Assembly (NCBI GenBank): GCA_016710645.1
Contig: JADJVI010000056.1
Location: forward strand, 1,388-65,387
Source of the DNA: Actinomycetales bacterium
GTDB lineage: Bacteria; Actinomycetota; Actinomycetes; Actinomycetales; Dermatophilaceae
Length of the DNA stretch: 64,000 bases
Direction: 5' to 3'
Shown: positions 17,898 through 60,045 of the stretch, one piece after another
How the letters are laid out: every line of letters starts with the position of its first letter
Position numbering within the stretch: the stretch's first letter is position 1
Made by a program: the position numbers and the translations under genes
The notes under the pieces: generated by a model
What the model saw: only the letters and a program-made list of their open reading frames with translations
Told to the model about the DNA's origin: nothing
Database searches by the model: none

Positions 17898-18704
17898 TCA
17901 GCCCGCCTGCAGCAGTTCGCGCCGCACCAGGGCAGCGACGGCCAACGGGTCCTCGACATGGGCGTTGTGTCCGAGCCCCGGCAGCACGACCGGCGCCGAC
18001 TCGATCCGTGCACCGGATCTGCCGGGTCCACCGAGGCCAGCGGGGCTGACCCCACCACTCGCCGCGCCGGATGCCCCAGCGAGGACTGCCTCCAGGTCCG
18101 CAGTCGACACCATGGGGTCGAGTTCGCCGCGCGCCAGGACCACCTCGGCCCGAGACGCCGCAAGCAGCCCGGCCATGTCGGGCGCTCCAGCGGCGACGGT
18201 CCCGGGTTCGACGGTCGTGCGCCAGCGCCCATCCAAACCCACCTCGACGCCCCGCCGGACGACCTCCGCGTCGCCGTCGACCAGGCCCACCAGGCCGGCC
18301 ACCTTGACCAGCCGATCGACCGCCGCCGGACGACTGTCGAACCACGCCACCGGCTTGCCGCCCACCGCTGCCGCTCCCGCCTTCTCGGCATCGGTCCAGG
18401 CCACCTTGATGCCCAGGCCCACCACCCGCGAGACCTGCACCCCGAACCAGCCGCTGGCCAGGGCCAGCCCGACCGCACCTCCGAGGGAGTGGCCGAACAC
18501 GGCATACCGGAGTGTTGGGTCGAGCTGGGCAGCGAGCGAGGCGGCCATCAACCCGATGTCATAGCGGGCCAGGCGCGGGCCGTCGGCGTGTCCGGGCAGG
18601 TCGGGGGTGAGCACCGGCACGTCGCCGAGCGCCCCGCGGACGCCGTCCCAGACCGCAGCGTTGCCCCCGAGTCCGTGCAGCAGCAGGACCGTCGTCGCAC
18701 TCAT
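17898..18704 (-). CDS. alpha/beta-fold hydrolase
   Basis: LLLHGLGGNAAVW oxyanion region, nucleophile elbow FGHSLGG, C-terminal GLGHNAHVEDP. Confidence 0.8.
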   Translation of the reverse strand: MSATTVLLLHGLGGNAAVWDGVRGALGDVPVLTPDLPGHADGPRLARYDIGLMAASLAAQLDPTLRYAVFGHSLGGAVGLALASGWFGVQVSRVVGLGIKVAWTDAEKAGAAAVGGKPVAWFDSRPAAVDRLVKVAGLVGLVDGDAEVVRRGVEVGLDGRWRTTVEPGTVAAGAPDMAGLLAASRAEVVLARGELDPMVSTADLEAVLAGASGAASGGVSPAGLGGPGRSGARIESAPVVLPGLGHNAHVEDPLAVAALVRRELLQAG

Positions 18705-18754
18705 GGGCGTGACGATATCGACGTTGGCGTTAAGGCTGGGATAGAACAGGGCGC

Positions 18755-19531
18755 ATGGACCTGCCGGTGTTGGACCCTCAGGAGCAACGGGTGCTCGGCG
18801 CGCTCATGGAGAAGGAGCTGACCGTCCCCGCAAGCTACCCGCTGACGCTCAACTCACTGCGTCTGGCCTGCAACCAGTCGACCAGCCGCGATCCCGTCGT
18901 CGACTACAGCGAGAACGAGCTCGTCGAGGTCACCCTGCGCCTGCAGGCCCGGCAACTCGTGCGGCTGGTGCGGGCTGATTCGGGCGCGCGGGCGGTGAAG
19001 TACAAGCAGCGGCTCACCGAGACGCTCGCCCTGCCTGAGGACGAACGCGCGCTGCTCACCGTGCTGCTGCTGCGCGGCGCTCAGGCTCCCGGCGAGCTCA
19101 AAACCCGATGCGAGCGGCTGCAGTGCTTCGCTGACCGCGCCGCCGTCGAGGCCACTCTGCAGGCGATGGCTTCGTCGGCCACCCCGCTGGTGCGTGAGCT
19201 CGAGTTGCTGCCCGGCCAGCAGGACCACCGCTGGATCCACCTCCTCGGGCCGGTCGAGTTGCCCGAAAACCAGCCCGGCGCAAGCCGATCCGCGCGGCGT
19301 GAGGGTCCGCCCCGGTGGCGACACGACGAGGCGAGTGACACGGCATACCTCGCGTGTGGGCTAGAGGCCGAGGCGACCGAGGCACCCGCCGCGAGCGACG
19401 AAAAGCTGCTCGACCTCCCGCACGGCATCCTCACCGTCACCCTCGACGCCGACGGCCGGATCATCGGTCTCACCGTCGAGGGCGCCGCCGCCAGCCTGCC
19501 GCCGGAAGCGTTAAGCGCCAAGGGCGCGTAA
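18755..19531 (+). CDS. DUF480 (YceH-like) protein with C-terminal extension
   Basis: LGALMEKELTVPASYPLTLNSLRLACNQSTSRDPVV is the DUF480 N-terminal signature. Confidence 0.75.
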   Translation: MDLPVLDPQEQRVLGALMEKELTVPASYPLTLNSLRLACNQSTSRDPVVDYSENELVEVTLRLQARQLVRLVRADSGARAVKYKQRLTETLALPEDERALLTVLLLRGAQAPGELKTRCERLQCFADRAAVEATLQAMASSATPLVRELELLPGQQDHRWIHLLGPVELPENQPGASRSARREGPPRWRHDEASDTAYLACGLEAEATEAPAASDEKLLDLPHGILTVTLDADGRIIGLTVEGAAASLPPEALSAKGA

Positions 19532-19604
19532 AGGAACCTCGGCGCGGCGCTAAGAGGGCGCAAAGACGGCGGAGGTATGCCGTTCGGCCGAGTGAGCTTG
19601 AGTC

Positions 19605-22058
19605 GTGAGACTGCTCGATCGGAATCGTCCTGCCCTGCGCGACCTTGACGGGGACCAGCTAGCCCCCTCCGAAACCTCAGGAACTACGGCCGGGTCTACG
19701 GCCGGGTCATCCGTCGCACCAGCCGGTCCGGGGCCGCTGGAACGCACCCCCCGCATCGAGGTGCCCGAGGACCGCGGCTACCAGATCAAGGAGGCCCTGC
19801 TCGGCAAGGCGCTCACCAACGACGCCGTCGAGGACGAGAAGCTCAGCAAGACCCTCGCCCTGGGCGTGCTGTCCAGCGACTGCATCTCCTCCAGCGCCTA
19901 TGGCTCGGAGATGATGCTGCTGGTCATGCTGCCGCTGTTCGGGATGGCGGCCTATGACGTGCTGCTGCCGCTGACCGCGGTCGTCCTCGCGGTGCTCGTC
20001 GTCGTGACGATGACCTATCGCCAGGTCGTCATGATCTACACCCGCGCGGGCGGGTCCTATGTCGTCGCCCGGGAGAACTTCGGGCCCGTCGTGGCACAGG
20101 TCGCGGCGGTCGCGCTCATGCTCGACTACATCGTCACCGTGGCGGTGCAGGCGGCGGCGGGCACCAATGCGCTGACCTCCGCGCTGCCCAACCTCGGCGA
20201 CTATTCGCTGGAGATCACGGTCGCCGTCGTCGCCGTGCTCGCCTATGGCAACCTTCGCGGGCTGCGGGAGGCGGGGCGGGCGTTCGCGTTCCCGACGTAT
20301 TTCTTCGTCGGATCGATGGCCCTGGTCCTCGTCATGGGGGTCTATCACGAGCTGACCGGCGACCTGCCGATGTACGACCCGCTCACCGCCGAGGGAGCCT
20401 TCCCCGTGGGTGGCGGCGGCACGCTGTTGTCGATCGGTGGCCTCTATGTCGTGCTCAAGGCCTTCGCCAACGGCGGGTCCTCGCTCACCGGGCTGGAGGC
20501 CATCTCCAACGGCGTGAGCGTCTTCCACTCACCCGCTGGGCGCAACGCCCGACGCACGCTCGTCGTCATGAGCACCATCCTCGGCGTCCTCGTCGGCGGG
20601 GTGTCCTGGCTTGCCCACCTCACCCACGCCGTGCCCTACGAGTCGGGCTCGCCGACGGTCATCTCGCAGGTCGCTCGGGCGGTGCTGCCCGACAACACGG
20701 TCGGCCATGCGCTCTTCTTCATGGTGCAACTGGCGACCATGCTCATCCTCTACACCGGCGCCAACACGCCCTTCACTGGCTTCCCCTATCTGGCCAACTT
20801 CGTTGCCGGAGATGGCTTCCTGCCCCGCTGGTTGCGCAAACGCGGTCACCGGCTGGCCTTCTCCAATGGCATCCTCCTGCTCACCGTCGTCGCGCTCGCG
20901 CTGCTCATCGGCACCGGCGCCCACGTCGACAAGCTGGTCGCCTTCTATGCCATCGGCGTCTTCACCGGGTTCACCCTCGCGGGCTTCGGTATGGCGGCAT
21001 ACCACCGCACCCATCGCGGCCCACGCAGCCGCTGGTCGGTGCTGCTCAACGGCGTATCCGGTTCTGTCGCAGCGGGCGTCGTGATCGTCTTCGCGGTCAC
21101 CAAGTTCACCGAAGGCGCCTGGTTGGTCGTCGTCGTCTTCCCCGTCATGGTCATCGGGCTGCTGCGACTGCACCGCGCCTACCAACGCGAGGAAGCCGCC
21201 CTCGCCGACATTCCCACCAGCGGGCGGCGCCGGGGCATCAGCGGGCTCAACGTCGTGCTCGTCCTCGTCGACAATGTCGACCTCGCCGTGCTCTCGGCGC
21301 TGCGCTATGCCCGCGGTCTGCGGCCGCAGCACCTGCACTCGGTGCACTTCGTCGTCGACAGCGCGTATGCCGCCGACCTGCAGAAGCAGTGGGACAGCCA
21401 GGACGGCACCGACCTCGCCCTGGAGCTCATCGACTGCCCCGACCGTCGAATCGACCGTGCCGCAGTCCAATTGACCTATCGGCTGGTGCGCGACAACCCG
21501 CTTGCCCAGGTCACCGTCCTGTTGCCGCGCCGGGCCTATGGCACCCTCGCGACCCGGCTGTTGCACGACCGCACCGCCGACCGCATCGCACGCGCGGTCT
21601 CCCGAGTCCCCGGTGCGGCGGCAACGATCGTGCCCTTCGACGCCTCCGCTGCGGCCACCGCCCGTGCGGCGGCCAACGAGGCGGCAATGGCCGCCACAGC
21701 GTCCGTTGGCTCAACGGCATACGCGCCGGCGACGGATGGCGGCGCCGACGGGGAGTCGGCTGCGACCGAAGCCCTTCCTGCTCCCGATGCGGGTCAGGTC
21801 GGCATCGGCGCTGCGGCGACGCGACAGGTCGTCACGGTCACCGGCCGCATCGTCTCGCGCAAGCTGTCCGCGATCGCCAATGCCCCTTCGGTCACCTACC
21901 GCGTGGCCGACCAGACCGGCGAGGTCACCCTGCTCTTCTACGGCCGGCGCGATGTCGCAGGCCTGGCCCCCGGCACAACGCTGGAAATCACCGGTCGGAT
22001 CGCGCCCCTGCACGGCCAGGCCACCATGTCCAACCCGCAATACCGCATCCTCGCGTGA
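19605..22058 (+). CDS. APC-superfamily permease fused to a C-terminal cytoplasmic region ending in an OB-fold-like domain
   Basis: 817 aa. 12-TM APC core (LGVLSSDCISSSAYGSEMM...). C-terminal VVTVTGRIVS...YRVADQTGEVTLLFYGRRDVAGLAPGTTLEITGRI. The start codon is uncertain. Confidence 0.8.
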   Translation: MRLLDRNRPALRDLDGDQLAPSETSGTTAGSTAGSSVAPAGPGPLERTPRIEVPEDRGYQIKEALLGKALTNDAVEDEKLSKTLALGVLSSDCISSSAYGSEMMLLVMLPLFGMAAYDVLLPLTAVVLAVLVVVTMTYRQVVMIYTRAGGSYVVARENFGPVVAQVAAVALMLDYIVTVAVQAAAGTNALTSALPNLGDYSLEITVAVVAVLAYGNLRGLREAGRAFAFPTYFFVGSMALVLVMGVYHELTGDLPMYDPLTAEGAFPVGGGGTLLSIGGLYVVLKAFANGGSSLTGLEAISNGVSVFHSPAGRNARRTLVVMSTILGVLVGGVSWLAHLTHAVPYESGSPTVISQVARAVLPDNTVGHALFFMVQLATMLILYTGANTPFTGFPYLANFVAGDGFLPRWLRKRGHRLAFSNGILLLTVVALALLIGTGAHVDKLVAFYAIGVFTGFTLAGFGMAAYHRTHRGPRSRWSVLLNGVSGSVAAGVVIVFAVTKFTEGAWLVVVVFPVMVIGLLRLHRAYQREEAALADIPTSGRRRGISGLNVVLVLVDNVDLAVLSALRYARGLRPQHLHSVHFVVDSAYAADLQKQWDSQDGTDLALELIDCPDRRIDRAAVQLTYRLVRDNPLAQVTVLLPRRAYGTLATRLLHDRTADRIARAVSRVPGAAATIVPFDASAAATARAAANEAAMAATASVGSTAYAPATDGGADGESAATEALPAPDAGQVGIGAAATRQVVTVTGRIVSRKLSAIANAPSVTYRVADQTGEVTLLFYGRRDVAGLAPGTTLEITGRIAPLHGQATMSNPQYRILA

Positions 22059-22061
22059 CCA

Positions 22062-22087
22062 CACGGCATACCGGCGGGTATGCCGTG
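22062..22087 (+). terminator. 11-bp hairpin from an inverted motif pair directly after the permease stop
   Basis: CACGGCATACC-ggcg-GGTATGCCGTG. Another single motif copy lies at ~22125. Confidence 0.5.
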
Positions 22088-22210
22088 CGTCCCTCCCTCC
22101 CACAGCGCGGACGCGACGGACAATGGCGTATGCCGTCCCGTCACCGCTGGTTGCCCGGTCGCCCCGCCGACGGAGGTCGACTCGGTGGGCTGGGGCGGGT
22201 CGCTGCCACG

Positions 22211-23350
22211 ATGCCGGGGCGGCGCGGGCCCGCGTTGACCCTGGCCGCGGTGGTCCTGCCGCTGCTCGTCGTCATCCTCGTGCCGTTCCGCGACTCGCTC
22301 ACGCTGCCCAGTGACCTGTTGGTCTTCATGCTCGGGGTGTTCGTCGTCGCGCTCGCGGGTGACTGGGTGGCGGCGCTCGTCGCGGCGGTGGCGGCGGTGC
22401 TGTTGTTGAACTACTACTTCACTCCGCCGTTGCACACGTTGACCATCGCCGATCGCGATCACGTCGTGGCCCTGGTCGTCTTCGTCGCTGTCGCCATCAT
22501 CACCAGCAGCCTCGTGGGCGCGGTGACCCGGCGGACCCGTCAGGCGGCGGAGGCTGCGGCCGAAGTGGCCACCCGCACAGCCCTGCTGCGGGCGGTCTCG
22601 CACGACCTGCGCACCCCGTTGGCCTCCGCGAAGGCGGCCGTCGAGGGGCTGCGCTCGCCCGAGGTGAGCTGGAGCCCCGACGAGCAGCGCGAGCTGTTGA
22701 CGACAGCCAAGGCCTCGATCGACCGGCTCACCTCGCTCGTGGAGAACCTGTTGGACATGAGCCGGCTGCAGGCGGGGGCGCTCTCGGTCTTCCCGCGGGC
22801 CATTGCCGTCGAGGATGTCGTCGCGCACGCGGTGCGCGAGGTGGATCCCCAGCGCACCCAGGTGGTGGTCCAGGTGGCGGACGACCTGCCCGAGATCTGG
22901 GCCGACCCACCGCTTCTGGAGCGGGTGCTGGCCAACCTGCTGACGAACGCCTTGCGGTTCTCTCCTCCCGGGCAACCGCCGCACGTCACGGCATACGCGG
23001 TCGGGGTTGGCGCTGGGAGTGGGAGTGGGCCTCGGAGTGGTTCGTGTGTGGGGGCGGCGGTCGAGGTGTGGGTCGTGGACCGTGGGCCGGGGGTGCCGGA
23101 CGCGCGGTTGGCGACCTTGTTCGAGGCGTTCCAACGGCGCGGCGACCGTGACAACACCAATGGACTCGGGCTCGGTCTGGCGCTGGCGCGTGGGCTGGCT
23201 GAGGCCATGGGTGGCACCCTGCGCGCCGAGCACACCCCCGGTGGCGGACTCACCATGGTCGTCCGGCTGCCGGTGGCCCTCGCCGCCCCGGCCGTCATCC
23301 CGCCCGGCTCTCGCGAGCAGGCCATCACCGACCCACGGGAGCGGCCATGA
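22211..23350 (+). CDS. KdpD-like sensor histidine kinase lacking the N-terminal KdpD/Usp sensor (DUF4118-HisKA-HATPase)
   Basis: ORF 21389..23350 trimmed to MPGRRGPAL. DUF4118-type TM bundle, H-box SHDLRTPLAS, N and G boxes (LLTNALRF, DRGPGV, GLGLGLA). Confidence 0.85.
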   Translation: MPGRRGPALTLAAVVLPLLVVILVPFRDSLTLPSDLLVFMLGVFVVALAGDWVAALVAAVAAVLLLNYYFTPPLHTLTIADRDHVVALVVFVAVAIITSSLVGAVTRRTRQAAEAAAEVATRTALLRAVSHDLRTPLASAKAAVEGLRSPEVSWSPDEQRELLTTAKASIDRLTSLVENLLDMSRLQAGALSVFPRAIAVEDVVAHAVREVDPQRTQVVVQVADDLPEIWADPPLLERVLANLLTNALRFSPPGQPPHVTAYAVGVGAGSGSGPRSGSCVGAAVEVWVVDRGPGVPDARLATLFEAFQRRGDRDNTNGLGLGLALARGLAEAMGGTLRAEHTPGGGLTMVVRLPVALAAPAVIPPGSREQAITDPRERP

Positions 23351-24063
23351 CCAGCGTGCTCGTCGTCGACGATGATCCGCAGATCCTGCGCGCCATCGAC
23401 ATCAACCTGCGAGCTCGGGATTACGACGTGACCTGCGCGGCCACGGGAGCGGAGGCGCTCGCGCTGGCGTCGAAGCGGCCGTTGGATTTGGTCGTCCTCG
23501 ACCTCGGCTTGCCCGACATGGACGGCTGTGACGTCATCCGCGGGCTGCGCGGTTGGACCAGCATCCCGATCCTCGTGCTCTCCGGGCGCACCGACAGCCA
23601 CGACAAGGTGGAGGCGCTTGACGCCGGCGCGGACGACTATGTGACCAAGCCGTTCGACATCGACGAGTTGCTCGCCCGGTTGCGTGCCGTGGCGCGCCGA
23701 GGCGATCGGCCGTTGCCGACGATGCGGCTGGTTCTGGGGGCGCTGGAGGTGGATTTCGCCGCGAAGACCGTCACGCAGGTGGCTCTTGAGGAGTCGCGTG
23801 CTGAGGAGGCGGCTGGGGACGTGGCCGAGGAGGTGCGCCTCACCCCGACCGAGTGGCACATCCTGGAGGTCATCACCCGCCATCCCGGACGGCTGGTGAC
23901 TCAGCGCGAGGTGCTGGCTGAAGTGTGGGGTCCGCAGTACGTCAAGGAGACCTCCTACCTGCGGGTCTACCTGACCCAGTTGCGCCGCAAGCTGGAGCCC
24001 GACCCCAGCCGGCCGCGCCATCTGATCACCGAACCCGGCATGGGTTACCGATACGAGCCCTGA
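23347..24063 (+). CDS. kdpE: OmpR-family response regulator, KdpE-like
   Basis: VLVVDDDPQI...LDLGLPDMDG receiver domain. C-terminal winged helix LTPTEWHILEV...YLRVYLTQLRRKLE. ATGA overlap with the kinase gene. Confidence 0.9.
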   Translation: MTSVLVVDDDPQILRAIDINLRARDYDVTCAATGAEALALASKRPLDLVVLDLGLPDMDGCDVIRGLRGWTSIPILVLSGRTDSHDKVEALDAGADDYVTKPFDIDELLARLRAVARRGDRPLPTMRLVLGALEVDFAAKTVTQVALEESRAEEAAGDVAEEVRLTPTEWHILEVITRHPGRLVTQREVLAEVWGPQYVKETSYLRVYLTQLRRKLEPDPSRPRHLITEPGMGYRYEP

Positions 24064-24175
24064 GCCGGACGCCTGGGCCGTCGCGAGGGGTCTCGTCCGG
24101 GGAGCTTTCCACAGGTTTGGCTGACGGGTCGGCGCGGGCGGTTGGTGGTGTGGTGGGCTGGGCGGGTCGTCGGGC

Positions 24176-24508
24176 GTGCACGGTCAGGGGGCTGGTGTGG
24201 CTGAGGTGGAGTTCCGGGTGGTCGCGGAGTCGCTGATGCGTGCCGCCGTAGATATCCGGGTGGTCGCTGCGGCGGTGCGGGATGGGTCAGTCGACGGGTT
24301 GGACAACGACCTGGACACCGGACACGCCCGGCTGCAGGTGGTGTTGTCCGACTACTGCGCCCGATGGAACCAGGGCCTGAAAGGCGCGATCCACGGCCAG
24401 GAACACATCGCCGACTCTCTCGATGTGGCGGTCGCTGGGTATCTCGCGCAGGACGAGCAGGCCGCCGCGACCTTCCGCGACATCCACCGCGACCTGAGCC
24501 CCCTGTGA
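24176..24508 (+). CDS. small helical protein, EspC/WXG-like T7SS-associated partner of the downstream toxin
   Basis: 110 aa with no TM. GTGA overlap with the next gene. An alternative GTG start at ~24197 follows AGGGGG. Confidence 0.5.
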   Translation: MHGQGAGVAEVEFRVVAESLMRAAVDIRVVAAAVRDGSVDGLDNDLDTGHARLQVVLSDYCARWNQGLKGAIHGQEHIADSLDVAVAGYLAQDEQAAATFRDIHRDLSPL

Positions 24509-25797
24509 GCGCCTGGTCAGATCTGGCATCCGGACGTCCGGCGGTGGTGTTGATCCCGGGCGACCCGTCGGGGGCCTACCGGCTGGCGGATCAGTTGACC
24601 GGGTTGGCGGAGGTGACCGCTGACGCCGCGCGGGCCCTGTCTCGGGTGGAAGTGGACTGGACCGGCGGGGCCGGGACCGCATTCGTGGAGACGTTCGCGC
24701 TGCAACCGCGAGTCCTCAAAGACGCCGCGGCCGCGTTCGACGCCGGCGCGGCAGCCCTCACCCGGTATGCCGTGGACCTGATCGCCGCCCGCGGGGAAGC
24801 CCAAGTCGCGATCGACTGGTGGCGACAAGGGCTGGCCGAAGCACACGCCGCCCAGGACGCATCCACCGACTCGCGGACCAGCTTCGCGGCCCGAACCTGG
24901 CAACCCTGCACCCCGACACCCGGTCTGGCCACCCAACGGGCCGCAGCAAGCAAACTGGACAACGCCTACGCCGCCCTCGACCGAGCCGGTCACGCGGCAG
25001 CCGACGCCCTGGTCGCCGCCCAAGCCCACGCCCCCGCCGCAGCAACCTGGTGGGAAACCGCCGCACCCACGGCATACGGCCTGACCCGGCTGGGGGACAC
25101 CCCGACCAAACGCGAGTTCGCGCTCGGCGCCGGCCGCGGCGTGATCGACCTGTTCCTGACCAGCGGGGACCGGCGAGCCTTCACGCTGGTCAACGAGAAG
25201 ATCGACGCATGGTCCAAGGGTCACGGCCTCAACCCCGACAGCGCCGCCACCGGCTGGGGCAAACTCGCCGGTGCGATGCTCATCCCCATCCCCGGCGAAG
25301 GCGCGCTCGCCGGCGTCAGCGCCACCGTGCTCGCCTCACTGACCCGCAAAGCCGCCAACGCAACCCTCAAGACCGTCCTCAACGGACTCGACAAGACCCC
25401 CAACCTCATCGCACGCCGCACCATCACCCCCGACGCACCGGTTACTGCGATCTTCAAAGACAGGGTCATGGCCAAGAGCGCCGAAGTCTCGGCGAGACGC
25501 TCCGAGACCCTGGTGTTCGACAGCCGATCCGCAGCGCGCGAGGGCCTTCCAGGGGAGCTCATAGGCGCCGGCAACCGCTTCTTTCGGGGGGCAACCTTGA
25601 AGAGCCAGGACTTCGCTGCAATCGGGCTACCTGATGGTGGCTACCGTCTACAGTTCTTCTCCCCGGCCAACACTCCGGGTTATGGCAAGCTGTACGTGCA
25701 AGAGGTTGACAACATCGGACAAGTTCTCCGTGAGTACAAGCAAACCATGGGGCCGGAGGGTCTGATCGAAACAAAGTGGGTGCATGGTGGACCATGA
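24505..25797 (+). CDS. polymorphic toxin with an N-terminal T7SS-signal (WXG100-like) domain and a variable C-terminal toxin module of unrecognised family
   Basis: ORF 24364..25797 trimmed to the GTG at 24505. PGDPSGAYRLADQL...WTGGAGTAFVE...AAALTRYAVDLIAARGEAQVA matches the actinobacterial putative T7SS-secreted-protein N-domain. The last ~130 aa are lower in GC. Confidence 0.65.
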   Translation: MSAWSDLASGRPAVVLIPGDPSGAYRLADQLTGLAEVTADAARALSRVEVDWTGGAGTAFVETFALQPRVLKDAAAAFDAGAAALTRYAVDLIAARGEAQVAIDWWRQGLAEAHAAQDASTDSRTSFAARTWQPCTPTPGLATQRAAASKLDNAYAALDRAGHAAADALVAAQAHAPAAATWWETAAPTAYGLTRLGDTPTKREFALGAGRGVIDLFLTSGDRRAFTLVNEKIDAWSKGHGLNPDSAATGWGKLAGAMLIPIPGEGALAGVSATVLASLTRKAANATLKTVLNGLDKTPNLIARRTITPDAPVTAIFKDRVMAKSAEVSARRSETLVFDSRSAAREGLPGELIGAGNRFFRGATLKSQDFAAIGLPDGGYRLQFFSPANTPGYGKLYVQEVDNIGQVLREYKQTMGPEGLIETKWVHGGP

Positions 25798-26194
25798 CCT
25801 TCCCGTTGCTTTGCACAGGGCGCTACGCGGCGACCTAGGCTCGATACAAGCGATCTCGGCGGCCAACCAGGCCGATCTCAGAGCCGCCGCGGCGGCTCTC
25901 GCGTCACCGTTGGTGTTGACGAGGGACGCGACGGCCAGTGTTCTGCGCGACCTCGTCGAGAAGCGTTTCCCACCAGTGGCCGCCCAGGCGTGGGCCTCAT
26001 TCATGCGCCGCGGGTACCCCGAAGGCTCAACCAGCCAAGGCCCCATCAGTCCCATCGACATAGATTACGAAGGACCCTGGGAAGAGCAGATTGCGGACGT
26101 TGTGTCCACGTTGGACGAATTCGGCGATGTCGTTGATGGGGACCTTTCCGACCACCAGCTCCTCGGCCTCCTGCGAATCCTTAACGAAACGTGA
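25784..26194 (+). CDS. candidate cognate immunity protein
   Basis: 136 aa, acidic. Overlaps the toxin 3' end by 14 nt and shares the reduced GC content. Confidence 0.5.
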   Translation: MVDHDLPVALHRALRGDLGSIQAISAANQADLRAAAAALASPLVLTRDATASVLRDLVEKRFPPVAAQAWASFMRRGYPEGSTSQGPISPIDIDYEGPWEEQIADVVSTLDEFGDVVDGDLSDHQLLGLLRILNET

Positions 26195-26249
26195 GACCGA
26201 CGGGCCAGTCAGCGACATCAGGACCAGCCGGGGTGAAAAGGTCCAAGAG

Positions 26250-27719
26250 TCAGCGGCGGGAGAGCAGGACGACGGTCGAGAGGGCGTCCACGGCATACGG
26301 GCGCAGGTCCCATCCCGAGAAGCCGACATCCGGGATCAACCCGGCCGACAGGAAGTCGTCGCGGAAGGCTTGGTAGGAGTAGCCCGCGTCGCTGCGGAAC
26401 TCGACCACGATGCGCCCGCGCGGGGAGCAGCACATCGCCAGGCGCCGGAAGACCTCCGACCGATGGACCGGGTCCACCTCCAGGATGCTGCTGTTGATCC
26501 ACGCGATGACGTCGAAGGGCACGCTCTCGCCGAGGTCGTCGAGGATGAGTCGCTCCGGTTCCATGACAAGCCACTTCGCATCCGGGTATGCCGTCTCGGC
26601 CGCCGCGATGCCGGTCGGGTCGACATCGGTGCCGACGACGTAGTGGCCGAGCACGCTCAGGGCGCCACCGACGCGGCCGGCGCGGCACCCGACTTCCAGG
26701 ACCCGCGAACCCGGCCGGACCATGACATCGAGCAGGCGGGCCTCCTGCGGGAGGCCACGGCGGGCAGCCACCGCTGCCGCGGCGACGGGTCCGGTGAGCG
26801 GCGCGGTTGCCGACCCACCATCGGAAGCACCAGCGGGTATGCCGTGCGGCTGGTGTGCGAGGTGGGCGCCCGGACCGTCGCCAGGGCGGGGAAGGCGGAT
26901 CTCCACCCACGACATCCCGAGCTCGGAGGCGACCTCGCGGGCCGACGCGGGACGCATCGCCGGGTCTTTGGACAGGCACCGGCCGATGATGTCGACGACA
27001 TCTGACGGCACGGTCGCGGGCAACGTGGGCATTGGCTCAGTGACATGCGCCAGCGCGGTGGCGATGGGCGTGTCCTTGTCGAACGGCCTTCTGCCGGCGA
27101 GGAGTTCGTGCGCGACGACCCCGAGGGCGTAGAGATCACTGGCCGCGGTCGCGGGACGGCCGAGCGCCTGCTCCGGGCTGAGGTAATGGGGCGTGCCGAG
27201 CACCTCGCCGGTGCGGGTCAGACCCATCGATCCCGCAGCGCGAGCGATGCCGAAGTCGGTCAGCTTGACCGCACCGTCGCTGGTGAGCAAGACGTTGGCC
27301 GGCTTGACGTCACGGTGCACGACGCCGGCCTCGTGGGCGGCGTTGAGGCCCAGCGCCATCTGGCCGACGATCGACCTGACCCGGGCGACGTCCAAGGCAC
27401 CGCGCTCGCGCAATTCGACTGCGAGAGAATGGCCGTCGACGAGCTCCATGACGATGTAGGCGAGGTTTTCATGCTCGCCGTAGTCGAACAGCGTGGCGAT
27501 GTTGTGGTGCGACAGGCCGGCCGTGAGCAGGGCCTCCTCGTGGAAGCGCTGCGCGAAGACCGGCTCTGCGGACGTGTCGGGCCGCATGATTTTGACCGCG
27601 ACGACGCGCGCCAGGACGGTGTCCTGCGCACGCCAGACATCGCCCATCCCCCCGGATGCGATGAGCGAGTCGAGCACATAACGGCCACCCACGGCGACGC
27701 CATGAGTGAACCGCTTCAC
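26250..27719 (-). CDS. Hanks-type Ser/Thr protein kinase fused to a C-terminal class-I SAM-methyltransferase-like domain
   Basis: Kinase motifs GGMGDVW, VAVK, HRDVKPANVLL, DFGIA, GTPHYLSPE. The C-terminal VLEVGCRAGRVGG...VVGTDVD...FDVIAW resembles MTase motifs I, II and III. Confidence 0.85.
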   Translation of the reverse strand: MKRFTHGVAVGGRYVLDSLIASGGMGDVWRAQDTVLARVVAVKIMRPDTSAEPVFAQRFHEEALLTAGLSHHNIATLFDYGEHENLAYIVMELVDGHSLAVELRERGALDVARVRSIVGQMALGLNAAHEAGVVHRDVKPANVLLTSDGAVKLTDFGIARAAGSMGLTRTGEVLGTPHYLSPEQALGRPATAASDLYALGVVAHELLAGRRPFDKDTPIATALAHVTEPMPTLPATVPSDVVDIIGRCLSKDPAMRPASAREVASELGMSWVEIRLPRPGDGPGAHLAHQPHGIPAGASDGGSATAPLTGPVAAAAVAARRGLPQEARLLDVMVRPGSRVLEVGCRAGRVGGALSVLGHYVVGTDVDPTGIAAAETAYPDAKWLVMEPERLILDDLGESVPFDVIAWINSSILEVDPVHRSEVFRRLAMCCSPRGRIVVEFRSDAGYSYQAFRDDFLSAGLIPDVGFSGWDLRPYAVDALSTVVLLSRR

Positions 27720-58343: not shown

Positions 58344-58389
58344 CCGAAGGGGTATGCCGGGCGGGTGAGACCGCGGCATACCCCTTCGG
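58344..58389 (-). terminator. 16-bp hairpin from an inverted motif pair, 3' of the diiron oxygenase gene
   Basis: CCGAAGGGGTATGCCG-14 nt-CGGCATACCCCTTCGG. Confidence 0.5.
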
Positions 58390-58451
58390 GCCTTGTCGAT
58401 CAGAAGCGATCAGCGAGGATCAGAAGCAATCACGCGCCAACGAGCAGTGGA

Positions 58452-59476
58452 TCAGAACACCGGGATGATGTCGTCCATGTCGATGTCGCTGATCTCTTCG
58501 CCGGTGATACCGACCTCGGGGATCGCGGGGAAGGGGATGTTGTAGCGGTCGAGCACGCCCTTGAGGTTGAGCATGGCCGAGCGCCAGTTTTCCTTCTTCT
58601 GCTCGTACTCGGGAATGAAGAAGCCAGCCGCACGTGCGATGGCCTCGCCCTCGCGCTGAGCCGAGATGAAGTCCTCGGGGAGGTCCCAGAACTCCATCGG
58701 CGGCTCGAAGAGCACGGCCGAGAGGAACAGGTAGCCGGCGCGGATCTGCTTGGTGATGAGGCTGCGCTCGGACACGTCCAGCTTCGGGTAGTCGCGCCCA
58801 TGAGCGACATGCAGATCGCCATGTGACGGCCCTCGTCGCGGCCGATGTTGCGGAAGGCGGCCTGGTACACAGGCTCCTTCGCGCCGGCGGCCATCTGGTG
58901 GAAGATCGTCGCAGCAGCGATCTCGCCCATAAGGAAGGACGAGAAGAGGATGGCCAGCGAGTAGCGCGGGACAGCCTTCTTGTAGCCACTCCAGTAGCGG
59001 CCGCCGTTGAAGTACAGCCACTTGGTGTTCTTCTGGAGGCGCTTGCCGAGCTCGGTCTTGGGCTCGTAGGTGAGCGGGTCCGGGTGCTCGAGCAACTTGG
59101 TGATGGACAAGCCACACATCTGCTCGTGCATCTGCTCGTCACGGGTCACCGAGAAGAAGCACCGGCGGACGGCGTCCTCTTCGTGGACCTCGTAGGTCTT
59201 GATGAGAGCCTCGGCGAACACCGGCGGGGCGGATGCGTCGAAGACCGACAGCAGCGTCCACCAGTACGCGATCGCCTCGCGCTGCTCCCACGTGTAGGAG
59301 CTCGGGTCAAAGGTGTCCCAGGGGAGCTTCAGCGGGTCCCACTGGTCACGTTGGGAAGAGGCCCAGATCTCTTCCATCTTGGCTGTCTCCCGGTGCCAGC
59401 TCAACGGGTAAACGTTGGGCTGCTCGGTCTCCGGCGGCATCTCCATGCTTCCTGCGAAGCGCTCTTTGCTGCTCAT
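58452..59476 (-). pseudogene. ferritin-like diiron oxygenase, -1 frameshift after the second EXXH motif
   Basis: ORF 58430..59476 carries RDEQMHEQ and RDEGRHMAI, then turns into Ser/Arg/Pro noise. ORF 58452..59117 supplies the plausible C-terminus DYPKLDVSERSLITKQIRAGYLFLSAVLFEPP…DIIPVF. The junction is at ~58790-58800. Confidence 0.7.
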
Positions 59477-59628
59477 AGGCCCGAGAGTAGATGTCGCAAC
59501 CTAGATTGTCTAGGTCTTGACTACCTGGGTGCTCGGCCTCACACTGACCGATCGGTCGGGAAAAGGTGCGACCGACTGAATCACCCTTGAGGTGCCCTCC
59601 GAAGGGGTCTACCCAGAGCCGCTCGGGG

Positions 59629-60045
59629 CTACTCGGTGCGACCGCGCAACAGCCGCCGCATGAGCTCGACGAACTGCTCCAGGTCGGGTCCCAGCCGCGC
59701 GAAGAACGCGGTCTCGACATCGTTCTCCCGCCCGTATGCCGCCGCGAGACGCTCGCCGGTGGCGGTGAGGCGCACGGTCACCAGTCGCCGGTCGGCCGAT
59801 TCGCGGTGTCGCTCGACCAGGCCGTCGCGTTCGAGGGTGTTGAGGACGCTCGACACGGCCGCTCGCGACAGGCCCGAGTAGCGGGCGATCTCCCGCGGCT
59901 CCATCTCACCAGCGACCCATACGCAAAACATCACCCGAAAACCTGCCATGCTCCACCCGGCCTCGCGGTGCACCTGGGATTCGAGCCGGTGGACCAACAT
60001 CGTCGACAGGCGCACGAGGTTGAAGGATGCGCGCAGGGCGAGCAA
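59629..60045 (-). CDS. MarR-family transcriptional regulator
   Basis: wHTH REIARYSGLSRAAVSSVLNTLERDGLVERHRESADRRLVTVRLT. Confidence 0.85.
   Translation of the reverse strand: MLALRASFNLVRLSTMLVHRLESQVHREAGWSMAGFRVMFCVWVAGEMEPREIARYSGLSRAAVSSVLNTLERDGLVERHRESADRRLVTVRLTATGERLAAAYGRENDVETAFFARLGPDLEQFVELMRRLLRGRTE

Follow-up and report, generated by a model that had tools for sequence, protein, structure and literature searches.

In the LXG toxins of Firmicutes (T7SSb; TelA-C, EsaD/EsaG), an N-terminal helical secretion domain with small partner genes upstream (Lap/DUF3130-type) is joined to a variable C-terminal toxin with an adjacent immunity gene, and diversity is driven by recombination (PMC10801868, PMC9600955). 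Actinobacterial toxins with a T7SS_signal domain (PF21725), for which a literature search under either name found no papers, combine a small EspC-like gene, a scaffold with a Gly/Ala-rich linker, a toxin tip and an overlapping immunity gene. According to a 2026 preprint, candidate Esx substrates of one actinobacterium, where encoded outside the Esx gene cluster, adjoin a small WXG100-like hairpin gene, and its authors liken these genes to the targeting factors of type VII secretion system (T7SS) effectors of Firmicutes (PMC13622651). A similar plan is present at positions 24176-26194 of a 64,000 nt stretch (hereafter the window) of contig JADJVI010000056.1, from the genome of an Actinomycetales bacterium of the Dermatophilaceae (GCA_016710645.1). 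The three genes found there very probably form an ESX/T7SS polymorphic-toxin cassette, inserted between response-regulator and Ser/Thr-kinase genes and carrying an exchangeable tip-immunity module. Systems of this type are known, and the libraries searched hold no description of either the toxin or the immunity family. Like LXG toxins in the respects listed above, the putative cassette differs from them in its T7SS_signal N-terminus, in belonging to an ESX-type (T7SSa) machine whose genes include those for EccB, EccD and a mycosin-like protein, and in that only one partner gene is seen.

The cassette consists of three open reading frames (ORFs), orf1, orf2 and orf3, all on the + strand and all intact (Table 1). 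They are chained by two overlaps, both present as given in a preliminary description of this DNA: a GTGA, in which the GTG of orf2 (24505-24507) lies over the TGA of orf1 (24506-24508), and a 14-nt overlap, the ATG of orf3 (25784) lying 14 nt ahead of the end of orf2. An alternative start of orf1, GTG 24197, has AGGGGG 5 nt upstream and may be used instead of 24176. The start of orf2 at GTG 24505 is supported by the N-terminal VSAxSDL, which is kept in a paralogue on contig C61 of the same genome. Promoters and terminators were searched for around the cassette, and none were found.

Table 1. Coordinates (window positions) of the cassette and its parts.
Feature	Coordinates	Strand	Basis or remark
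Three-gene cassette, 2.18 kb	24067..26243		Absent between the same two flanking genes in congener G015
orf1, small acidic helical protein, 110 aa (103 aa from GTG 24197)	24176..24508	+	Candidate WXG100/EspC-like targeting partner
orf2, predicted 430-aa polymorphic toxin (P0001)	24505..25797	+	T7SS_signal match and exchanged tip
T7SS_signal (WXG100-like helical) domain, residues 15-178	24547..25038	+	PF21725, W52-T-G
Linker / pre-toxin region, residues 179-312	25039..25440	+	Also present in L001 and in L035-L037 from congeners, each continuing with another tip
Low-GC exchanged module (toxin tip, immunity gene, 3' spacer)	25442..26243	+	L001 divergence, GC 0.613
Conserved 98-aa toxin tip, residues 333-430	25501..25794	+	154 representative homologues, alignment
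orf3, 136-aa acidic all-helical immunity candidate (P0003)	25784..26194	+	Homologues directly 3' of tip in 22/22 loci

The N-terminus of orf2, described earlier as a T7SS-secreted, WXG100-like signal domain, passed the Pfam threshold for T7SS_signal (61.8 bits, gathering score 27), and the WxG motif at residue 52 lies inside the match. YxxxD occurs twice, as YRLAD (residue 25) and as YAALD (residue 155); at the second site, [YW]xxxD is kept in two congener homologues (L035 and L036) and is absent in the C61 paralogue. The linker contains a Gly/Ala/Pro-rich hydrophobic stretch (..LIPIPGEGALAG..) and closes with RRTITPD just before the recombination junction described below. The product of orf1 had been called an EspC/WXG-like helical protein. 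It is indeed a small helical protein (pI 4.8), but its match to EspC (PF10824) is weak, with E = 0.069 and 14 bits against a cut-off of 23.5; its paralogue on C61 gives E = 3.9e-4, also below the cut-off. A small helical gene of this type is kept upstream of T7SS_signal proteins in four loci, with homologues on C61 and in L035 and L038. Sequence searches of the PDB gave no relative for the orf1 profile and no match for the N-terminal domain of orf2.

Exchange of the tip together with the gene behind it is seen by comparison with a metagenome scaffold, L001, that is 98.5% identical to the window over 18542-25441 and has no detectable similarity beyond. The genes of L001 follow one another as in the window (permease, sensor kinase, response regulator, small gene, T7SS_signal protein), and the last of these proteins, P0005, has RRTITPD in common with P0001 but then continues into an unrelated 87-aa end, followed by a different ORF with an ATGA overlap. 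Neither this tip nor its downstream ORF matches the tip and immunity profiles of this analysis or any Pfam family. As the identity ends at 25441, the junction falls at residues 311-313, exactly at a drop in G+C content (GC), and the site of module replacement is mapped to within a few bases. Judging from these two sequences, tip and downstream gene have truly, and recently, been exchanged as a unit, in line with the horizontally exchanged tip and immunity module first proposed.

A low-GC segment had been noticed from about 25560 onward; the drop is real, but the exchanged segment already starts at 25442. GC over 25442-26243 is 0.613, the lowest in the 64-kb window, compared with about 0.71 where the cassette begins, and falls in the lowest 1.1% of 802-bp windows genome-wide (0.690 +/- 0.027). 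At third codon positions it is 0.68 in the tip and 0.72 in orf3, versus 0.83 in the N-terminal part of orf2. Of 18 loci with the tip-immunity module (L002-L022), 17 have it 3-8 GC points below their remaining sequence, in hosts of 36 to 74% GC, so that low GC alone is no proof of a recent low-GC donor. It is a standing property of the mobile module and does not mark out a single recent donor. Among the loci fetched there was no nearly identical DNA that could represent a donor, the best having 73% nucleotide identity.

The insertion of the whole cassette is visible by comparison with a congener (G015, same genus), in which the genes for the response regulator and the Ser/Thr kinase converge with about 30 nt between them. 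Its homology to the window breaks off at 24066 and returns at 26244 (the response regulators are ~81-85% identical), and since the flanking genes are directly adjacent in G015, the segment 24067-26243 is inserted by comparison. Neither terminal repeats nor genes of mobile elements were found on the flanks of the cassette. Homologues of the scaffold, at 42-49% identity, occur in only three of the 19 congeners searched (L035-L037); these have the first ~290 residues in common, including the linker motif IPGFG.EG, and then run into three further unrelated tips. Counting that of L001 (6898-7565), four further tips on the same scaffold family are without a Pfam match, as are the downstream ORFs scanned in L001, L036 and L037. 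The T7SS toxins of the source actinobacterial genus seem largely uncharted.

The tip itself belongs to a widely distributed family. Used as query in an exhaustive HMMER search, the final 124 residues of orf2 gave 154 representative homologues (50% clusters), 106 of them with E <= 1e-10, in proteins of 54 to 3887 aa, and the match reaches the last residue in nearly all. The C-terminal ~130 aa had been taken as the tip; a distinct C-terminal domain is present, although its conserved part covers only about 98 aa. Carriers start as RHS/DUF6531, as SpvB+TcdB_mid+RHS (Tc-like BC fusions), as WXG100_2 or as T7SS_signal proteins, and one further carrier has an N-terminus that by eye resembles a signal peptide or membrane anchor. 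The tips of P0006 and P0007 are placed C-terminal to the Rhs DPxGL motif. The 20 genome loci that were fetched come from Actinomycetota, Chloroflexota, Lentisphaerota, Myxococcota and beta/gamma-Proteobacteria, and tip loci span at least five phyla. The very same tip-immunity module is thus found on Rhs and SpvB/TcdB/RHS polymorphic toxins, and also as an orphan module, whereas in the window it is carried by a T7SS scaffold and an Rhs cage is absent.

In L013, L019 and L020 the tip is a short ORF standing alone, accompanied by an immunity gene. In Paenarthrobacter sp. DKR-5 (L011 2-4697) a stand-alone tip and immunity module lies ~730 nt beyond an Rhs protein that ends in a NucA/NucB DNase tip; this is a classic orphan array, and its existence favours the preliminary interpretation. 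In a Chloroflexota metagenome-assembled genome (L026 3956-4501), a single ORF joins the first ~40 tip residues in frame to a full immunity homologue, and is what remains of a deleted toxin whose immunity gene was retained. The source genome has a single copy each of tip and immunity gene, with no other copies or orphan modules found in it. Short and formerly unannotated C-terminal domains, likewise found by their modularity across scaffolds and their downstream immunity genes, were described as the PT1-PT9 / PIM toxins by Nachmias et al. (bioRxiv 10.1101/2021.10.19.465003).

With a profile of orf3 homologues, one was found directly downstream of every complete tip (22 of 22 distinct loci), including L003, where the ORF had been overlooked by the gene caller. 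In 19 of the 20 mapped loci the start of the orf3-type gene overlaps the toxin stop by 4-25 nt, which implies translational coupling, and in L006 it lies 1 nt after the stop. This co-occurrence agrees with the pairing of tip and overlapping immunity gene made in the preliminary description, and supports orf3 as the candidate cognate immunity gene travelling with the tip. Its product is acidic (pI 4.4), as had been noted, and so is the entire immunity family (pI 4.1-5.2). No signal peptide is visible in orf3 or in its homologues, those of Gram-negative hosts included. The AlphaFold2 model of orf3 is all-helical (pLDDT 91, pTM 0.87) and has no neighbour in the PDB by Foldseek; no match was found in Pfam (21 members) or NCBIfam (window copy only).

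The same genome contains a sibling cassette. On contig C61 (~36.4-39.9 kb, - strand; L030/L039) there is an EspC-like small gene homologous to orf1, a T7SS_signal protein fused to a double-stranded-DNA deaminase domain of DddA-like type (PF14428, 75 bits), and an Imm1 gene that overlaps it. The N-terminal part of the scaffold is 42% identical to that of the window, and the three-gene layout is the same, so that a known toxin-immunity pair sits at the positions of the window tip and orf3. Unlike the C61 pair, the window tip and immunity protein belong to families without a Pfam or NCBIfam entry and have predicted folds without a PDB neighbour.

The tip had been left without assignment to a known toxin family, and this stands: there was no match in Pfam (20 members, E <= 10), NCBIfam (whole orf2), PHROGs or PADLOC, and the tip profile found none in the PDB by sequence. 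Its AlphaFold2 model, made with a 20-sequence alignment, has a pLDDT of 88 and a pTM of 0.79. A single strand comes first, then two helices and a five-stranded antiparallel meander (beta-alpha-alpha-beta5). Foldseek with this model returned nothing significant from the PDB or BFVD (best PDB match E = 0.72, TM-score < 0.4), the best of the non-significant matches being SnoaL/NTF2-like proteins with a TM-score of ~0.37. Going by the confidence of the two models, tip and immunity protein are predicted to be real folded domains. A reading of weak, multi-stretch matches of the tip as YD/Rhs repeats was rejected, as the proteins matched are CarboxypepD_reg/SpaA beta-sandwich repeats and the likeness is probably compositional.

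It is quite improbable that the C-terminal domain is no toxin but a binding, adaptor or structural domain, with orf3 as its chaperone or partner. The missing match to any known toxin family, catalytic motif or fold would fit such a role, and so would the weak multi-hit likeness of the beta-hairpin region to beta-sandwich repeat proteins, were it not for the compositional look of those matches. However, the domain is always found in the toxin position (at the extreme C-terminus, after Rhs DPxGL, inside Tc-like BC fusions), orphan tip and orf3 modules lie behind another Rhs toxin, and the same position in the scaffold family is taken by a DddA-like deaminase with Imm1. These features argue for the tip of a polymorphic toxin.

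In the family alignment R358, R381, K395, Q399, K412, T414, E422 and K424 are invariant polar residues, and D369, S386 and Y397 are nearly so. From their alternation along the strands, most of the conserved polar residues should lie on one face of the sheet. The window copy carries every invariant residue, which speaks against the cassette being an inactive relic, displaced or decaying and retained only for the protection that the immunity gene gives against neighbours. The scarcity of the scaffold among congeners and the remnant fusion of L026 could be taken as signs of such a fate, but the intact frames and conserved coupling overlaps, the confident AlphaFold2 models, the presence of an identical orf3 on 189 contigs and of an identical or near-identical 430-aa orf2 on many assemblies leave it with hardly any probability.

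Of known toxins, the RelE/ParE-type (BECR) RNases come to mind when the polymorphic-toxin tip is viewed by topology: they are of similar size (~95 aa), begin with the same elements (beta-alpha-alpha-beta-beta-beta) and also have conserved Lys, Arg, Tyr and Glu on strands, but the tip has two extra C-terminal strands where they have a helix. Assignment to RelE/ParE was rejected. Compared by hhalign with 28 ParE/RelE sequences of relatives, the tip reached a probability of 0.3%, and no RelE/ParE structure was among the best 50 Foldseek matches in the PDB; given these results and the extra strands, the resemblance is topological only. Most tips of the family are basic (pI > 8), and this, together with acidic immunity proteins that have no signal peptide, points to a cytoplasmic and probably phosphate-bearing target. 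A guess at the activity, which is rather doubtful, would be metal-independent attack on a phosphate-bearing substrate (RNA or nucleotide) via the face formed by R381, K395, Y397, Q399, K412, T414, E422 and K424.

Core genes of an ESX/T7SS were indeed found elsewhere in the genome. Contig C20 carries an ESX-type cluster in which EccC (832.9 bits), EccB (182.5 bits) and EccD (132.1 bits) are all above curated cut-offs, with a WXG100 pair alongside, while the mycosin-like gene is below its own. Four T7SS_signal proteins are encoded in the genome. One of these, with no assigned C-terminus, is on contig C27 (63.6-72 kb; L028/L032), where it follows another FtsK/EccC-like ATPase, which at 312 bits does not reach the EccC cut-off, and is accompanied by a WXG100 gene (71702-71965). 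The genome may thus have a second T7SS locus here, in reduced form. On contig C9 (44.8-45.2 kb, - strand; L033) there is a 468-aa WXG100_2/T7SS_signal-like protein, both matches being below cut-offs, that ends in Gly-rich amphipathic repeats and is followed by a 272-aa ORF. It may be a membrane-acting T7SS effector.

Several observations weigh against an ESX-exported toxin. The mycosin-like protease on C20 scores 181.8 bits, under a cut-off of 278.75; the ESX cluster lies on a different contig, far from the cassette; no clear conservation of a canonical C-terminal YxxxD/E export motif is seen in the orf2 scaffold family; orf1 stays below the EspC cut-off; the tip in the window, with a pI of 5.7, is not basic; and nothing points to a particular enzymatic activity. 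Some of these would suit a genuine toxin-immunity pair that is released by another route, or that works inside the cell as a toxin-antitoxin addiction or abortive-infection module, namely the lack of linkage to the ESX cluster, the unclear export signal in orf2 and the low score of the mycosin-like gene, and the module does move among very different delivery scaffolds and occurs in short stand-alone ORFs. Yet such an alternative is unlikely, as orf2 has a full T7SS_signal domain with WxG above the Pfam cut-off, a conserved small helical partner gene is found upstream, and the genome holds core ESX genes and, among its T7SS_signal proteins, one beside an EccC-like ATPase and a WXG100 gene.

If the cassette is an ESX toxin locus, Orf1 would pair with the N-terminal domain of Orf2 to form a helical bundle recognised by the EccC ATPase of the genome's ESX system, and the Orf1-Orf2 complex would be exported. 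The tip would then enter a neighbouring cell and act in its cytoplasm, a site suggested by the lack of a signal peptide in the immunity protein, in Gram-positive and Gram-negative hosts alike. Orf3, its translation coupled to that of the toxin, would bind the tip 1:1 and block it in the producer and its kin. A bolder version, possible but tentative, is that the tip has a new enzymatic fold with an activity unseen among interbacterial toxins and a conserved cytoplasmic target, that the immunity protein is an equally new helical inhibitor fold, and that the pair is, in this environmentally abundant actinobacterium, one of several ESX-exported weapons against competitors or epibionts. A universally conserved cytoplasmic target is proposed because T7SS, Rhs and Tc-like scaffolds deliver the tip in Gram-positive as well as Gram-negative phyla.

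Two other features of the window were observed. Adjoining the cassette, the Ser/Thr protein kinase gene (26250-27719, - strand) has a C-terminal extension with VLEVGCRAG, which by eye resembles motif I of S-adenosylmethionine methyltransferases; the cassette-free congener has this gene too, so that it is probably unrelated to the cassette. A second low-GC patch (58350-59700, 0.62-0.63) has two ORFs on the - strand, 58430-59476 and 58452-59117, that look like one gene for a ferritin-like di-iron protein split over two frames (DEQMHE and RDEGRHM motifs, by eye), and the split may be a frameshift or assembly error.

The role of ESX in non-mycobacterial Actinomycetota is still being worked out; it has been linked to defence against epibionts, and in the actinobacterial family Actinomycetaceae effectors had not been identified experimentally (PMC13622651). 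By sequence, the source genome has four T7SS_signal proteins, of which at least two belong to putative toxin-immunity cassettes, one with a known deaminase tip and one with a tip of an undescribed family, and the window locus is a clean example of module replacement. The tip-immunity pair is widespread, with 154 representative clusters, loci in at least five phyla and four kinds of delivery scaffold, and its compactness (98 aa + 136 aa) makes it a practical target in the search for a new toxic activity and a new inhibitor fold.

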